A stretch of 6,021 bases of DNA from a virus: IMG/VR virus record IMGVR_UViG_3300031922_000088, positions 1 to 6,021 of that record. One strand, given 5' to 3'. Within the stretch, counting starts at the first letter, position 1; each line of letters starts with the position of its first letter. Shown here piece after piece: positions 115-6,021 of the stretch. The position numbers were made by a program, and so were the translations under genes. Below the pieces are notes generated by a model. The model was given only the letters and a program-made list of their open reading frames with translations. It was not told where the DNA came from and made no database searches.

Positions 115-1083
115 TTGTCCAGAGCCTTGATCGATTTCGTTTCCGTCACCTTCCCCAAGCATGCCGCCCGCATCTGGACGGCAGACGGCGATGCAGAGGA
201 CCGCCGCCGGTCCATCAAGGAGTTTTTCGACTTGCCCACCCTCCTGCATTGGATGTGCGGCTTCGACGATGCCATCCGCATCACCAAGCCAGAGGACAAG
301 GTGTGGCAGTTCTACCCTCAGTCCGGCTTTGTCCTGGACGACGAAGGCCAGAGCCTCGGGCGCTACGGCATCAAGGACGATGGCGACTTCCACCTGAGCT
401 TGTCCGGTGCGGGCTGTGCTCGGGTTGGCGACTGGAACCGGTTGTACCGCTTCATTGAGAAGGTCGGCGCGAAGATCACACATGTTGACATTGCTGTTGA
501 TGACCTCGCCGGCGAAATCTTCAGTTTCGAGAACATGCTCGAACACTGGCGCAATGGTCAGTTTAACGAAGGCGGGCGCAATCCGAATGCACAACTGATT
601 GATGACCTCGGCAGCAACAAGGGCCGATCTCTTACCATCGGCCAGCGTGGCCACAAACAGATTCAGGTTTACGAAAAAGGCAAGCAGTTGGGCGATCCGG
701 AAAGCAAGCGCATCCGTGTAGAAGTCCGCCTGTACGCCAAGCATCTGACGATCAGTCCAGAGGTGCTCGTGAACCCTGAACCGTACTTCCGCGGCTCCTA
801 TTCTCTGCTCGTTGAATACCTCGATGGCGTCATCGAGCGTTTCGATGTTCTTCGCGCCACTGCTGAGGCCAGCGGCAAGGCCATGCTTTCGTTCCTCGAA
901 CGTCAGGCCGGCCGTTCCATTGGTCTGCTTTTTGACGCCCTCGGCCGCGATGCTTGCGCGGCGTACCTCGAAACAAAGCTTGCCCGCGAAGGTCGCCCGG
1001 GCCGGTTCAAGTCATTCCATGGCGACCATGAAAACCTTGTCCGGTTCATCCGCGACGATCTCACGAAAGAGGCCCACCCATGA
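115..1083 (+). CDS. Rolling-circle replication initiator, Rep_trans-like (gII / RstA analogue)
   Basis: This is a 322-aa ORF. IDFVSVTFP at the N-terminus, HVDIAVDD, IQVYEKGKQ (candidate catalytic Tyr) and RVEVRL resemble, from memory, the Rep_trans family (pT181 RepC / CTXphi RstA). It sits directly upstream of the g5p-like gene with an ATGA overlap. The listed TTG start at 115 lies only 2 nt after AGGAG (108-112), so the start is uncertain (see 5964). Confidence 0.8.
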   Translation: MSRALIDFVSVTFPKHAARIWTADGDAEDRRRSIKEFFDLPTLLHWMCGFDDAIRITKPEDKVWQFYPQSGFVLDDEGQSLGRYGIKDDGDFHLSLSGAGCARVGDWNRLYRFIEKVGAKITHVDIAVDDLAGEIFSFENMLEHWRNGQFNEGGRNPNAQLIDDLGSNKGRSLTIGQRGHKQIQVYEKGKQLGDPESKRIRVEVRLYAKHLTISPEVLVNPEPYFRGSYSLLVEYLDGVIERFDVLRATAEASGKAMLSFLERQAGRSIGLLFDALGRDACAAYLETKLAREGRPGRFKSFHGDHENLVRFIRDDLTKEAHP

Positions 1084-1364
1084 TCCGTTTCGAAGTCTCT
1101 GCCGAACCCATCCAGACCCGCCGTATCACCAACAAGGCCACCGGCAACCAGGTCGAACTGCGCGAGCAATTCGTCTATGCCTACAACGGCTATTCCCACC
1201 CGATGCGCATGCGTTTCACCCTCGACCGCGACCAGGTGCCCTACGCCCCTGGCATGTACACCCTTGGTCCCCGTTCGATTGTTCAGGGCCAGTACGGTGA
1301 GGTTGCGATCGGTCGCAGCATCGAGCTTCTTTCGATTCCCACCACGGCCAGCAAGGCCGCTTGA
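1080..1364 (+). CDS. ssDNA-binding protein, g5p-like
   Basis: This 94-aa protein aligns by eye along its length with Ff gene V protein: MIRFEV vs MIKVEI, REQFVY vs NEQLCY, TLDRDQVPYAPGMYTL vs TLDEGQPAYAPGLYTV, QGQYGEV vs VGQFGSL. It has the right size and position, and its start overlaps the rep stop (ATGA). Confidence 0.9.
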   Translation: MIRFEVSAEPIQTRRITNKATGNQVELREQFVYAYNGYSHPMRMRFTLDRDQVPYAPGMYTLGPRSIVQGQYGEVAIGRSIELLSIPTTASKAA

Positions 1365-1571: not shown

Positions 1572-1805
1572 ATGAACGTTCTCGCTCGTTTCAAGGCGAC
1601 CATGGCCGCTTTCGTGGCCATGGTCTTCGCCATGGTCGTCGGTTCCAGCACTGCTTTTGCCCAGGCTCTTGATCTGGCTGCTACGCAGGCTCAGGTGTTG
1701 GGCTACGTCGGTGCCACGATTACCTTCATCGTCGCCGTTGGTCTGGCTGTGCTGGGACTGGTCATGATCGCCAAAGCGATCAGGTGGGCCCGTCGCGCTG
1801 GTTGA
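1572..1805 (+). CDS. Major coat protein precursor, g8p-like
   Basis: AGGAG at 1561-1565 lies 6 nt before the ATG. The 77-aa product has a signal peptide ending AFA. The mature ~47-aa peptide has an acidic/polar N-terminus (QALDLAATQAQ), a hydrophobic core (ITFIVAVGLAVLGLVMI) and a basic C-terminus (KAIRWARRAG). Confidence 0.9.
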   Translation: MNVLARFKATMAAFVAMVFAMVVGSSTAFAQALDLAATQAQVLGYVGATITFIVAVGLAVLGLVMIAKAIRWARRAG

Positions 1806-3076: not shown

Positions 3077-3372
3077 TGGGCGCATTACTTGCAGCATTTG
3101 TACCTTTCTTCATGGCTGCACTACGCTTATTCGTTCTTGCCAACATCGTCGGATTTGTAGTCCGTATTTTTGTCGGCCTCGGTGTTTATTTCTTGGTTAT
3201 GGAACCGCTTGGCGACGTTATATCTGACATGCTTAGCAATCGATTTCTCGGCCTTCCACCTGAAGTTGCTGGCTGGGTTGGTTTTATGAATGTCGATGTT
3301 TACGTTCAAGCAATCCTGAGTGCCTATGCAGTTGTTTGGGCATCGAATTTCGTTCTTCGGATGCGTCCATAA
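3076..3372 (+). CDS. Minor coat protein, g6p-like (hydrophobic; possibly DUF2523 family)
   Basis: ATG 3076 overlaps the g3 stop (TAATG), with GGAG 7 nt upstream. The 98-aa product is very hydrophobic, with 2-3 predicted helices. It lies between the g3-like and g1-like genes, as in other inoviruses. Confidence 0.7.
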   Translation: MGALLAAFVPFFMAALRLFVLANIVGFVVRIFVGLGVYFLVMEPLGDVISDMLSNRFLGLPPEVAGWVGFMNVDVYVQAILSAYAVVWASNFVLRMRP

Positions 3373-4559
3373 TGCCGATCAAGCTAGTTACCGGCACACC
3401 AGGAGCCGGCAAGACCCTTACTGCCCTGCAGGACGCATTGACGCAAGTTGGTGTTGATTTTGGCCTCTCCGATCCACTGGCAGAATGGGACCGTGGCACC
3501 ATACCCACACGCCCCGTTTATTTCTGCAACATTCGTGGCCTCGATCCTCGGCTACCCACGATTGAAACGCCATGGGATTGGGAGTCCTGTCCTGACGGAT
3601 CGCTGATCGTTGTTGACGAGGCGTGGGAGTTTTTCGGCAAGCAGTTGCGGAACGCGGACGATCCCCGCGTGCTCAACCTGGCCAAGCACCGCCATCGCGG
3701 CTTCGATTTCATCTGGACGAGCCAAGCGCCCTCGCAGTTGATTTCTGCGGTTCGTGACCTGGTAGGCTCGCATGTTCACGTAACAAGGAAGTTTGGCACC
3801 GAGACCACCATCCGCTATGAATGGCCGCATGTGCAGGAGTCACCCAACGGGCAGACTGCGAAGGCGCAGGCGATAGAACAGGTCTGGCGTTATCCGCCCA
3901 AACTGTTCCCGATCTACGAATCGGCGACCCTCCACACTGTCAAGCGCAAAATTCCCGCCAAGATCATCGCTGCCCTGGTACTGGCTGGATTTGTCCCTGT
4001 TCTCCTTGCTGTGTCCGGCTGGGCGCTCTACCAGGGCTTCGGCACGGCTGGCGTCGATCTGCCCTCACTCACTACCGAGACTGCCATCGCAGCTCAACCG
4101 GAAGGCGCGGCGCGCAGCGTAGCGAGCACCGCGCCGAGGGCCGGCACCAACAACGACGCACCGCAGACGGTCGAGGAGTTCATCATTGAACGAACTCCGC
4201 GCATCGATTGGGACCCTGCATCAGCACCCATCTATGATCGCTTCGAGGTCCAGGACTACCCGCGCATGTTCTGCATGATCTCGGGTGATCAGCGTATCGA
4301 GCGTGTGAGTTGTCGATGCCGAACTCAACAGATGACACCTATCCACGTGGACGACACCATCTGCATGCATATTGCTCTGAACGGCCGATGGGACCCGCGA
4401 CTTCCACCGATCGGGCACACGCCGAGGGAGGCCGACCGGACCCAGCTCCCGCCGATCGGCGAACAGTCGGCTATGCCATCAGCACCCATCGGCTTGGGTG
4501 GCTTTGACCGCTCGATCAGGCTTCCGCACGTTACGCCGGACGAAACCTCCCTTCGTTGA
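3372..4559 (+). CDS. Assembly NTPase, Zot / g1p-like
   Basis: ATG 3372 overlaps the previous stop (TAATG). Walker A GTPGAGKT lies at residues 8-15 and Walker B LIVVDEAW follows. A central TM helix (IIAALVLAGFVPVLLAVSGWAL) precedes a ~170-aa Cys-containing C-terminal domain. This is the typical Zot family (PF05707) layout. Confidence 0.9.
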   Translation: MPIKLVTGTPGAGKTLTALQDALTQVGVDFGLSDPLAEWDRGTIPTRPVYFCNIRGLDPRLPTIETPWDWESCPDGSLIVVDEAWEFFGKQLRNADDPRVLNLAKHRHRGFDFIWTSQAPSQLISAVRDLVGSHVHVTRKFGTETTIRYEWPHVQESPNGQTAKAQAIEQVWRYPPKLFPIYESATLHTVKRKIPAKIIAALVLAGFVPVLLAVSGWALYQGFGTAGVDLPSLTTETAIAAQPEGAARSVASTAPRAGTNNDAPQTVEEFIIERTPRIDWDPASAPIYDRFEVQDYPRMFCMISGDQRIERVSCRCRTQQMTPIHVDDTICMHIALNGRWDPRLPPIGHTPREADRTQLPPIGEQSAMPSAPIGLGGFDRSIRLPHVTPDETSLR

Positions 4560-4591
4560 TCCTGAATGGTCATTAACTCAAATTCTATACC

Positions 4592-4656
4592 CTATTGACA
4601 CGTAGCAACGGCGCGGCTCTCCGGGATTGTCAATAGTTTTTGCAACATTTGACAAT
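4592..4656. repeat. Three TTGACA-containing repeats forming two mutually exclusive inverted repeats in the AT-rich intergenic island
   Basis: A is ctattgaca (4592-4600), B is attgtcaatag (4626-4636) and C is ttgacaat (4649-4656). A pairs with B over 9 bp with a 27-nt loop, followed by ttttt at 4637-4641. B pairs with C over 8 bp with a 15-nt spacer. A CAATTG palindrome lies at 4653-4658. Confidence 0.6.
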
Positions 4657-4860
4657 TGATTGTTTTGATCGACCTCCGCCGTTATTTTTTTGGCGTGCCA
4701 CGGCCCAGCATCGCAGCCAAGGTCAGCACGCCACCGCGGGCCACATTGCGCCCCGCCAAACCGAGCAACAGGACACCCCAGCCCATCCCCGCACGGCCGC
4801 GCCCGGACCGCGCCAGCGGCCCGACGGGGCCCCCACGTAGTGGGGCAGGGAGGGCGACGC

Positions 4861-5127
4861 CTATGGCGTCGTCCAGCGGTTGTAGCGGGCCCGGAACGGC
4901 AGGATATTAGCTTCCTGCTTCCGCTTGCCCAGCTCGTCGAGCTGCATCACCGCCAGGACACGTTGCAGGCGAATCCTCCGCCGATCGGGTGCCACGAGTT
5001 CATCGCCGGCGATCCGCCAGCCGGCCCAATCGCCGAACAGCGGACCATTGCCGTAGACCAGCCAGTCATGCTGCCTACGCAGGCAGTCCGTGATGCCAAG
5101 TTTCTCGAAGCAGGGCGGTCTTTCCAT
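4861..5127 (-). CDS. Small protein, DUF3653-like; candidate XafT-type Xer recombination activation factor
   Basis: This 88-aa ORF has strong third-position GC bias typical of real genes in this genome. The segment GDWAGWRIAGDELVAPDRRRI matches my recollection of the DUF3653 core (W.GWR..G..L..P.G..I). It starts 85 nt from the dif-like attP. Only a weak RBS (GGA) is present, and its start overlaps the upstream ORF by 53 nt. Confidence 0.5.
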   Translation of the reverse strand: MERPPCFEKLGITDCLRRQHDWLVYGNGPLFGDWAGWRIAGDELVAPDRRRIRLQRVLAVMQLDELGKRKQEANILPFRARYNRWTTP

Positions 5128-5599
5128 CGGTCATTCCGTTTGAGGGGTTGCCCGGAATGCCGAAAGCCTCGTGCAAGAGCTGTTGCAGTCGTTTCAGCAG
5201 CACCGCCACAGTTCGCATAATGTATAGTCCTTCCTTCGTTGCCTGGTAGCCGCTGTCATGCGCTACCGCAGGGGCTGGGAAGCTACTCGACACCAGCACT
5301 GCCACTGCCATCAGTGCCAGCGCCTGCACTTTTTTTGCGAGACGTTGGAACGTCCGTCGTGAGCTCGCATCCGCGTTCGTTGCCTCTGCCATTGACTCGA
5401 ACAGCAGCACCGCGATCTCTTGGTCAGTCTTGCCCAGGTCGCGGGCCATGCGTTCGATCACGGCCGCATGCGCGTCCTTCCCGTTTCGCCAGTGCCCGGG
5501 GTTGCCGTTGGAGAGGCCGAGCGCCATACAGGCCTTTCGGTCACTTGTCAAGCCTTTGACAACCTTCCATTTCTCGAAAAGTTCGGCGGTTACTGGCAT
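5075..5599 (-). CDS. HTH DNA-binding regulator, phage repressor-like, with a predicted transmembrane segment
   Basis: Start chosen at ATG 5599 (GAGGG 8 nt upstream), giving 174 aa. LTSDRKACMALGLSNGNPGHWRNG resembles a Cro/CI-type helix-turn-helix. It is divergent from the replication/structural operon. A hydrophobic stretch VQALALMAVAVLVSSSFPAPAVA (residues ~91-113) follows a basic patch. Confidence 0.6.
   Translation of the reverse strand: MPVTAELFEKWKVVKGLTSDRKACMALGLSNGNPGHWRNGKDAHAAVIERMARDLGKTDQEIAVLLFESMAEATNADASSRRTFQRLAKKVQALALMAVAVLVSSSFPAPAVAHDSGYQATKEGLYIMRTVAVLLKRLQQLLHEAFGIPGNPSNGMTDGKTALLRETWHHGLPA
5210..5237 (+). other. dif-like attP for XerC/XerD-mediated integration (XerC arm + central region conserved, XerD arm degenerate)
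   Basis: AGTTCGCATAA-TGTATA-GTCCTTCCTTC was compared with E. coli dif GGTGCGCATAA-TGTATA-TTATGTTAAAT. The XerC arm matches 9/11, the central region 6/6 and the XerD arm 2/11. The 15-mer TTCGCATAATGTATA (5212-5226) is the reverse complement of the TATACATTATGCGAA core that I recall being reported for Xanthomonas filamentous phage attP/dif. Confidence 0.75.
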
Positions 5600-5665
5600 G
5601 TGCAAACCCTCTTGACTTGGTGAGCAAAGGCATTGTACGGTCCTGCTCGTGCAACCTGCTTGCAC
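5600..5665. promoter_or_regulatory. Divergent switch region: candidate operators and overlapping face-to-face promoters
   Basis: A perfect palindrome GTGCAA-cctgc-TTGCAC lies at 5649-5665. A related site GTGCAA-accctc-TTGACT at 5600-5617 abuts the repressor start codon. The leftward -10 TACAAT is the reverse complement of 5632-5637. The rightward candidate is TTGACT (5612-5617), an 18-nt spacer, then TACGGT (5636-5641). Confidence 0.4.
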
Positions 5666-5751
5666 ACCGGGGGCCAGGCTCCCGCACGCCGTCAGCGGCC
5701 TCTGCGGGTGCCCCGGTTTCCCCCGGCCCACCTCTCACCTGGAGAGCACGC

Positions 5752-5967
5752 ATGACCCGTACTCAGTGGATCCTCGACTACCGCCGCGCCCGGCTGGTCG
5801 CTCGCTTTGAAGATCGATTTGCCAGCGCTCTACCTAGCGCCTTGCTCTCGGTCGGCACCTACTCCTGCTCCCAAGCCGCCTACGCGGCGGCCCTTCGCTA
5901 CAAGTGGGACGCGCTGTCTCTGCCCTTGCTCAAGGGGTGTCCTCGCGTCTCTGGTGCCCGCTCATGA
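5752..5967 (+). CDS. Hypothetical 71-aa protein, first gene of the rightward operon
   Basis: GGAGAG at 5741-5746 lies 5 nt before ATG 5752. Third-position GC is high. The stop overlaps a possible rep ATG (ATGA). I recognise no motif. Confidence 0.5.
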   Translation: MTRTQWILDYRRARLVARFEDRFASALPSALLSVGTYSCSQAAYAAALRYKWDALSLPLLKGCPRVSGARS

Positions 5968-6021
5968 GGCCCGCACGGGACTTTTCCGCGCTCGAGCCGC
6001 AGGACAAGCGGCGCGGCCGCC
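5964..6021 (+). CDS. Possible true 5' end of the rep gene (continues through 1-114 into the 115..1083 ORF once the genome is circularised)
   Basis: ATG at 5964-5966 overlaps the TGA stop of the 71-aa ORF (ATGA), the same coupling motif as the rep/ssb junction at 1080-1083. The frame of the 115 ORF has no stop between position 1 and 115. Third-position GC is high, about 30 of 39 codons by hand count. Confidence 0.35.
   Translation, partial: MRPARDFSALEPQDKRRGR
5967..6021. repeat. Terminal direct repeat, copy 2 (circular-contig overlap)
   Basis: Exact 55/55 identity to 1-55. The window ends exactly at the end of the repeat. Confidence 0.95.

Follow-up and report, generated by a model that had tools for sequence, protein, structure and literature searches.

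An 88-amino-acid ORF on the minus strand of a small phage genome is a real, conserved gene under purifying selection, and it lies beside an attachment site that lacks a XerD arm. Based on profile comparisons, its product belongs to the DUF3653/XafT/XafV superfamily. The likeliest role of this product is Xer activation; that is, it would act as a phage-encoded Xer cofactor. The probability of this role is estimated at about 0.5.

The phage genome and its attachment site

The DNA analyzed here (the window) is a stretch of 6,021 nt. Its ends carry an exact 55-nt terminal repeat (1-55 is identical to 5967-6021), which shows that the assembly is circularly closed and that the genome measures 5,966 nt. 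The phage is an autonomous inovirus with a Xanthomonadales-type host. The initial annotation had described an inovirus of roughly 6 kb. Searches against cultured phages returned no match for the whole window by megablast and none for the 88-aa ORF by tblastn, and the pI protein is only ~30% identical to those of known inoviruses. The features of the window are as follows.

56-87, just upstream of the Rep gene: hairpin CCTCTGGCCCGAGTAGTAACACGGGCCAGAAG (DNA fold -12.2 kcal/mol, z = -5.65)
115-1083, plus strand: Rep_trans, by domain/gene annotation
1080-1364, plus strand: gV-type ssDNA-binding protein
1572-1805, plus strand: coat protein
Plus strand: pIII-like ORF and pVI-like ORF
3336-4559, plus strand: Zot/pI
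4790-4874, directly 3' of the DUF3653 ORF: structured non-coding element of ~85 nt with three hairpins
4861-5127, minus strand: standalone DUF3653 (Xaf/PSB15-superfamily) ORF, ATG start, 88 aa, MERPPCFEKLGITDCLRRQHDWLVYGNGPLFGDWAGWRIAGDELVAPDRRRIRLQRVLAVMQLDELGKRKQEANILPFRARYNRWTTP
5075-5599, minus strand: repressor-like ORF, 174 aa from an internal ATG (the mechanical ORF extends to 5731)
5210-5237, plus strand: dif-like attP AGTTCGCATAA/TGTATA/GTCCTTCCTTC, inside the 3' part of the repressor ORF

The repressor-like ORF and the DUF3653 ORF are the two genes on the minus strand. The repressor ORF ends at 5075 and overlaps the DUF3653 ORF by 53 nt in a different frame ((5599-5127) mod 3 = 1), just as the initial annotation had stated. 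It matches PHROG 638 (transcriptional regulator, E = 9.5e-12) and shows weak similarity to VGJphi ORF154.

The attP is composed of a perfect XerC arm (AGTTCGCATAA, 5210-5220), a center (TGTATA, 5221-5226), and a pseudo-arm that is not a XerD arm (GTCCTTCCTTC, 5227-5237). The site had been described as XerD-arm-less from the sequence, and there is indeed no XerD-arm consensus (TTATGT...) at 5210-5237. The pseudo-arm has neither a T at its first position (T1) nor a G at its fifth (G5). In the window clade, T1 or G5 is present in two of the eight pseudo-arms, and seven of the eight have a T at position 2. In other DUF3653-bearing inovirus clades, T1 or G5 is kept in 18 of 19 distinct pseudo-arms. 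The DUF3653 ORF lies on the XerC-arm side of the attP, with its start 82 nt from the first base of the XerC arm. The distance of 85 nt given previously is correct when counted to the conserved TTCGCATAA core.

The same arrangement is found in relatives of the phage. The free-form contigs L009, L010, L012, L013, L014, and L016 display the gene order of a repressor, an attP in its 3' part, and an overlapping DUF3653 ORF, with an overlap of 40-62 nt. Every free-form attP of the clade has the XerC arm (A/T)GTTCGCATAA and a 6-bp center but no XerD arm. Integrated forms were found three times: in L006 (a 561-kb contig of a Silanimonas MAG), in L007/L008, and in L015. In these prophages, the junction on the DUF3653 side is a complete dif (XerD arms TTATGTCGGCG, TTATGTAGAAA, and TTATGTCAAAG), and the junction on the repressor side is the pseudo-arm site, which in L006 is 6.4 kb distant. 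In other words, the relatives are integrated at the host dif with exactly this geometry.

A survey of 68 IMG/VR loci encoding family members, collected through a 20-sequence subset of an 87-sequence alignment, extends this picture. The pI/Zot gene is present in all of them except for two very short fragments (L037 and L047). A XerC arm facing the DUF3653 ORF was found 20-155 nt upstream of it in 50 loci, or ~50 of the 54 with enough upstream sequence; in most of the remaining loci the upstream sequence is missing. When these 50 loci are combined with the window, XacF1, and the contigs of the window clade, the resulting 59 ORF-side sites consist of 29 full dif junctions and 30 arm-less attPs. 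The layout of a repressor, an internal attP, and a DUF3653 gene occurs in ~60 inovirus contigs and also in XacF1 (ORF12/attP/ORF11), phiLf, and VGJphi (ORF154/attP/ORF136). DUF3653 genes have been located beside dif in 51 species, and the Xanthomonadales phages integrated at dif are all among them (Midonet 2019, PMC6744903). The statement in the initial annotation that other IMEXs likewise pair such attP sites with DUF3653 genes is thus borne out by the literature and by the survey. Because this association has been published since 2019, the ORF described here is a further case of it, from a previously uncultured clade.

Four chromosomal contigs (L002-L005) carry a 68-aa truncated DUF3653 remnant (P0012) located ~80 nt from a full dif and beside an IS transposase. 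L004 957-1272 is an example of such a locus, whose dif reads AGTTCGCATAA TGGATA TTATGTAGAAG. The remnant is apparently what a decayed IMEX has left behind at dif. In L011 (6267-6304), the attP region contains a tandemly duplicated XerC-arm core (AATTCGCATAAGTTCGCATAATGGATAC), which may be the scar of an aberrant or repeated Xer event. In L016 (11,381 nt), the phage is present twice, head to tail, and both copies have an arm-less attP; the contig is either a tandem form (replicative or prophage) or the result of assembly wrap-around. In some relatives, pI and the DUF3653 gene are separated by an additional gene of 128 aa whose product has a hydrophobic segment at its N terminus (L007 505-891; L011 401-787). 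The window is without this gene and has 300 nt of non-coding DNA at 4560-4860 instead.

Conservation and family membership of the 88-aa protein

Evidence that the ORF is a gene comes from its codon usage and from its relatives. GC content in its frame is 0.78 at third codon positions (GC3) and 0.46 at second positions (GC2). Most pairwise dN/dS values against seven orthologues lie at 0.11-0.35, and none exceeds 0.57. The codon bias of a real gene, which had been claimed from the sequence alone, is present. A word search retrieved 15 homologues, mostly from contigs of ~6 kb, and a profile search of 1.84 billion representatives retrieved 181 family members at E <= 1e-3. The start M-E/N-R-P-P-C and the length are conserved among the homologues. 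An AlphaFold2 model built on an alignment of 87 sequences has a mean pLDDT of 82.5, with helices at residues 7-10 and 14-25, a three-stranded sheet at 38-53 that bears the core G-x-W-x-G-W-R...P-D-x-x-R-I, and a further helix at 54-72. Fold and profile comparisons did not point to a function: the sequence profile had no match among PDB chains at E <= 10, Foldseek of the model found nothing in the PDB under E = 1, and the single Foldseek match in BFVD was a 98-aa viral protein that gave no functional lead.

The initial annotation held that the protein resembles DUF3653/XafT on the strength of the peptide GDWAGWRIAGDELVAPDRRRI, which is present in the ORF, and it named a Pfam DUF3653 search as the check. 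For the ORF alone this search falls short, as the score against PF12375 is 20.2 bits (E = 6.6e-4, residues 33-60 on model positions 8-35), just under the gathering threshold of 22.4 bits. XafV (20.3 bits) and XacF1 ORF11 (20.7 bits) are similarly below threshold. Through its relatives, the search is positive: PF12375 is matched by 15 of 16 close homologues (E <= 0.01, best 1.9e-6), and several homologues carry a precomputed PF12375 annotation. The conserved DUF3653 core is recognizable in the ORF as L30, W34, G36, W37, G41, L44, P47, and R51.

Comparison with XafT was made through the NCBIfam VC1465 model and VGJphi XafV, which served as stand-ins for the XafT sequence. Against NF040522 ("VC1465 family Xer recombination activation factor", XafT) the ORF scores 12.6 bits (E = 0.11), where the curated cut-off is 70 bits. 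The model is matched by 62 of the 87 wider family members (E <= 0.01, best 6.3e-8), all of them below the cut-off. The family profile aligned by hhalign with VGJphi ORF136 (XafV) at 94.7% probability (E = 6.4e-8, 61 columns) and with phiLf PSB15 at 93.5% probability over 37 columns only. Neither Pfam nor NCBIfam detected an HTH or another DNA-binding domain in the 88 aa; an HTH is encoded apart, in the upstream repressor ORF. The match of relatives to the DUF3653 and VC1465 models secures the membership of the ORF in the DUF3653/XafT/XafV superfamily at the level of sequence, and the earlier claim of a DUF3653/XafT-like protein is upheld to this extent. Because it has no HTH and scores 12.6 bits against a cut-off of 70, the ORF falls outside the narrow VC1465 family. 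V. cholerae dif1 was sought in viral contigs, without a match.

In one family member, P0057 (234 aa), DUF3653 is naturally fused to a repressor-type domain, DUF3693. XacF1 ORF12 and VGJphi ORF154 both belong to the DUF3693 family, and the fusion is a Rosetta-stone link between the two neighboring genes, the repressor and the DUF3653 gene. A programmed frameshift that would fuse the repressor to DUF3653, mimicking an HTH-DUF3653 protein, was considered and rejected because the frame offset between the two ORFs varies. The offset is 1 in the window, L009, L012, and VGJphi and 2 in L013, L014, and XacF1.

Candidate roles of the DUF3653 protein

What does the 88-aa protein do? The literature on its family is conflicting, as XafT and XafV are reported to be Xer activators and PSB15 is reported to be a packaging factor. 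XafT (TLCphi VC1465) raises the integration frequency and adjoins attP (PMC6744903). XafV (VGJphi ORF136) likewise adjoins attP and raises the frequency of Xer-mediated integration (bioRxiv 10.64898/2026.06.12.731946). The cellular counterpart of such an activity is the FtsK gamma domain, which activates XerD by direct contact (PMC6744903, PMC9226527), works at the septum, and depends on a canonical XerD arm (PMC9226527). If the ORF is an Xer cofactor, then FtsK gamma would be its functional analogue with no sequence relationship to it.

The ORF has the same geometry as XafV, since ORF154 carries attP in its 3' end and overlaps ORF136 on the same strand. The W, G, R38, P, and R51 positions are common to both proteins, and their DUF3653 scores are nearly the same (20.3 and 20.2 bits). 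The two systems differ in that XafV is a 136-aa protein with an N-terminal HTH, whereas the ORF encodes 88 aa with no HTH, and in that the VGJphi attP keeps recognizable XerD-arm bases, whereas the window attP is without any XerD arm. VGJphi integrates by XerC-first formation of a pseudo-Holliday junction, and XafV did not support TLC-type integration (bioRxiv 10.64898/2026.06.12.731946). With XafT, the ORF shares the DUF3653 domain, a position on the XerC-arm side of attP, an attP with no functional XerD arm, and integration at dif. XafT differs in consisting of an XRE-type HTH followed by DUF3653, and it comes from a Vibrio satellite, whereas the phage that encodes the ORF is autonomous and has a Xanthomonadales-type host. 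In addition, recombination driven by XafT in V. cholerae needed T1 or G5 of the pseudo-arm (PMC9226527), which are both absent from the window pseudo-arm; the 18 of 19 pseudo-arms of other clades that keep one of these bases conform to this requirement. By position and domain, the ORF is thus most like XafV or XafT, and it is a positional counterpart of PSB15 without the C-terminal functional parts of that protein.

Several lines of evidence favor a role as Xer cofactor. A helper appears to be needed because the free-form attPs have no XerD arm, and yet the prophages L006, L007, and L015 sit at dif. The ORF is homologous to the DUF3653/XafT/XafV family, and the residues Arg38 and Arg51 are found in XafV too. 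Its architecture matches that of VGJphi, the home of an experimentally supported activator, and the XerC arm faces the DUF3653 gene in nearly all informative loci (~50/54). Domain fusions, namely HTH-DUF3653 in XafT and XafV and DUF3693-DUF3653 in P0057, point in the same direction. Other results argue against this role. PSB15 occupies the same position and is reported to be dispensable for integration and required for assembly, PSB15-type proteins outscore the ORF on the VC1465/XafT model, the ORF has no HTH, and the window pseudo-arm has neither T1 nor G5. The initial annotation is therefore supported in part: homology, the XerC-arm side, and the relatives at dif agree with it, but a XerD activator that forms a self-contained, FtsK-independent integration module with attP is no more than a proposal, given the missing HTH, the score of 12.6 against 70 bits, and the counterexample of PSB15.

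In the favored explanation, the ORF is the standalone DUF3653 component of a conserved three-part lysogeny module of dif-integrating inoviruses, made up of the repressor, the attP in the 3' end of the repressor gene, and the overlapping DUF3653 gene. The episomal replicative form would express the protein along with the repressor, and the protein would contact host XerD and/or stabilize the XerC/XerD synapse. An attP bound by XerC alone could then recombine with the host dif, presumably with no need for FtsK. The crossover would create a complete dif next to the DUF3653 gene and a XerD-arm-less hybrid site at the repressor end, and the latter should resist FtsK-driven excision. For TLCphi, it has been argued that the arm-less hybrid site protects the prophage from such excision.

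The main rival is an assembly role like that of PSB15, and it is somewhat unlikely. Here the DUF3653 beta-hairpin would bind a packaging-signal hairpin on the plus strand and bring the DNA to the inner membrane for extrusion, and Xer integration would proceed independently. PSB15 (phiLf-UK ORF9; its counterparts are XacF1 ORF11 and SMA9 ORF2) resembles the ORF in being a standalone DUF3653 protein encoded on the minus strand, directly after the attP-containing repressor (as in phiLf and XacF1), in Xanthomonadales inoviruses of ~6 kb, and the ~65 family loci surveyed are all inoviruses. The phiLf-UK attP likewise has no XerD arm. PSB15 of phiLf-UK, the only standalone DUF3653 protein from this gene position with an experimental record, is reported to bind the packaging-signal hairpin and to be needed for packaging and virion assembly, not for integration (bioRxiv 10.1101/2024.03.19.585677). 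The genetic evidence in that preprint is that the lack of PSB15 causes a ~10^4-fold loss of virion yield while attL/attR formation is still detectable, and that packaging-signal mutants acquire allele-specific suppressors in the PSB15 hairpin (bioRxiv 10.1101/2024.03.19.585677). However, its integration test was an end-point PCR, which is non-quantitative (bioRxiv 10.1101/2024.03.19.585677), so PSB15 may have a quantitative effect on integration.

The likeness between the two proteins is itself limited. The hairpin motifs L-x-G, W-A-G-aromatic, and (S/T/A)-P-(D/E) align, with LTG, WAGFxF, and TPE in PSB15 corresponding to LFG, WAGWRI, and APD in the ORF (the 93.5% match above), but this likeness spans only 37 columns. 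The DNA-contact residue F15 of PSB15 corresponds to Ile39, and the family-conserved Arg38 and Arg51 correspond to Gly and Glu in PSB15. The PSB15 hairpin starts at residue ~6, whereas the ORF has a conserved 28-residue N-terminal extension (PPC...C...W). PSB15 is 108-127 aa long with a long basic C-terminal part, which makes it 20-40 residues longer than the ORF product; past the hairpin and the initial helix turns, nothing in the latter can be aligned to the C-terminal hydrophobic linker, basic helix 2, and tail of PSB15 (thioredoxin/cardiolipin binding). PSB15-type proteins score 21-37.6 bits on NF040522, more than the 12.6 bits of the ORF. Sequence closeness was dropped as a discriminator between an XafV-like and a PSB15-like protein because the residue pattern favors XafV but PSB15-type proteins outscore the ORF on the XafT model. 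A further argument against an assembly role is the presence of DUF3653 in elements that assemble no filaments, namely the TLC satellite and Vibrio double jelly-roll prophages (PMC6744903, PMC12715192).

Does the window contain a packaging signal on which such a factor could act? Two strongly conserved hairpin regions (56-87 and 4790-4874) are possible signals. Hairpin 56-87 is nearly identical in L006, L007, L009-L012, and L016. It contains GGCCCGTG on the complementary (minus) strand only, and this sequence fits the stem consensus of the Xanthomonas packaging signal, GGX(A/-)CCG(C/T)G. The hairpin could be a packaging signal or a Rep_trans nick-site origin, and it is explained equally well by the latter. 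The corresponding motif GGNCCGYG is not enriched in the window, where 6 copies were found versus 3.25 expected. The element at 4790-4874 is 81-91% identical in DNA to relatives over ~75 nt and shows compensatory changes in two base pairs, whereas synonymous sites of the adjacent ORF differ by ~50-65% and are thus less conserved than the element. Its last hairpin (GGGCGACGCC-TAT-GGCGTCGTCC, 4852-4874) overlaps the DUF3653 stop codon and is also found in L006, L009-L012, and L016. An Rfam search of the window, including this element, gave no credible match. The element could mark where the repressor/DUF3653 transcript ends, or it could act as ssDNA (as a minus-strand origin or a packaging signal). 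Elsewhere, the AT-rich intergenic stretch after pI (4592-4656) contains nested inverted repeats (CTATTGACA / TGTCAATAG; ATTGTCAATAGTT / AACATTTGACAAT) and the sole promoter-like matches within 4500-6021; it looks operator- or origin-like.

Another candidate role, an improbable one, is that of a lysogeny regulator. The protein would either assist or antagonize the neighboring repressor or act on transcription as a directionality factor, with no direct part in recombination or packaging. Such a role is suggested by the translational overlap of the ORF with the repressor in every relative and by the fusion to a repressor-type domain in P0057. VGJphi ORF136 is also annotated as a putative transcription regulator, and P15/XafT is termed "a transcriptional regulator" in a Vibrio study (PMC12715192). 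However, the 88 aa contain no detectable DNA-binding domain and gave no fold matches, and the action of XafT on XerD is reported to be independent of DNA binding (PMC6744903).

Finally, the explanation that the frame is open by chance, or is overprinted and yields no product, is already refuted by the conservation data. The small size of the ORF, the many mechanical ORFs on both strands of this GC-rich region, and the weak Shine-Dalgarno sequence in the window speak for it, but the conserved start and length, a dN/dS far under 1, the 181 family representatives, and the confident structure model leave it next to no chance.

Integration, the putative operon, and what the clade offers

The location of attP inside the repressor ORF has a consequence for both minus-strand genes. 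Integration would replace the last ~45 residues of the repressor with host-derived ones. In the Silanimonas prophage (L006 13897-14475), the repressor ORF crosses attR and continues for ~53 codons, and integration parts the DUF3653 gene from the upstream region of the repressor. A scan for consensus promoters found none between attP and the DUF3653 ORF and none for the repressor either; as the repressor promoter was missed too, the scan is uninformative on co-transcription.

Because attP lies inside the repressor gene and upstream of the DUF3653 gene, integration would cut the putative operon formed by the two. It is conceivable, though rather doubtful, that this cut serves as a one-way switch that silences the activator (or packaging factor) after lysogeny, so that the factor is made from the episome only. 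The repressor would gain a host-encoded C-terminus, and the DUF3653 gene would be moved to the far end of the prophage, beside the regenerated dif and away from its promoter. If true, this switch would be a general design rule of these IMEXs, as the same geometry is found in VGJphi, XacF1, and phiLf.

With these findings, the set of dif-integrating elements that have a DUF3653 gene next to a XerD-arm-less attP gains an uncultured clade of inoviruses, at least one member of which lysogenizes Silanimonas (Xanthomonadales). The clade is a test case for the conflicting reports on the DUF3653 family. Its protein is minimal (88 aa, no HTH), the pseudo-arm of the window attP is without even the residual XerD determinants that XafT needs, and free and integrated forms are both at hand for assay design. 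If the ORF has another role, its description would amount to routine annotation; if it activates Xer, the DUF3653 core alone would suffice for activation.
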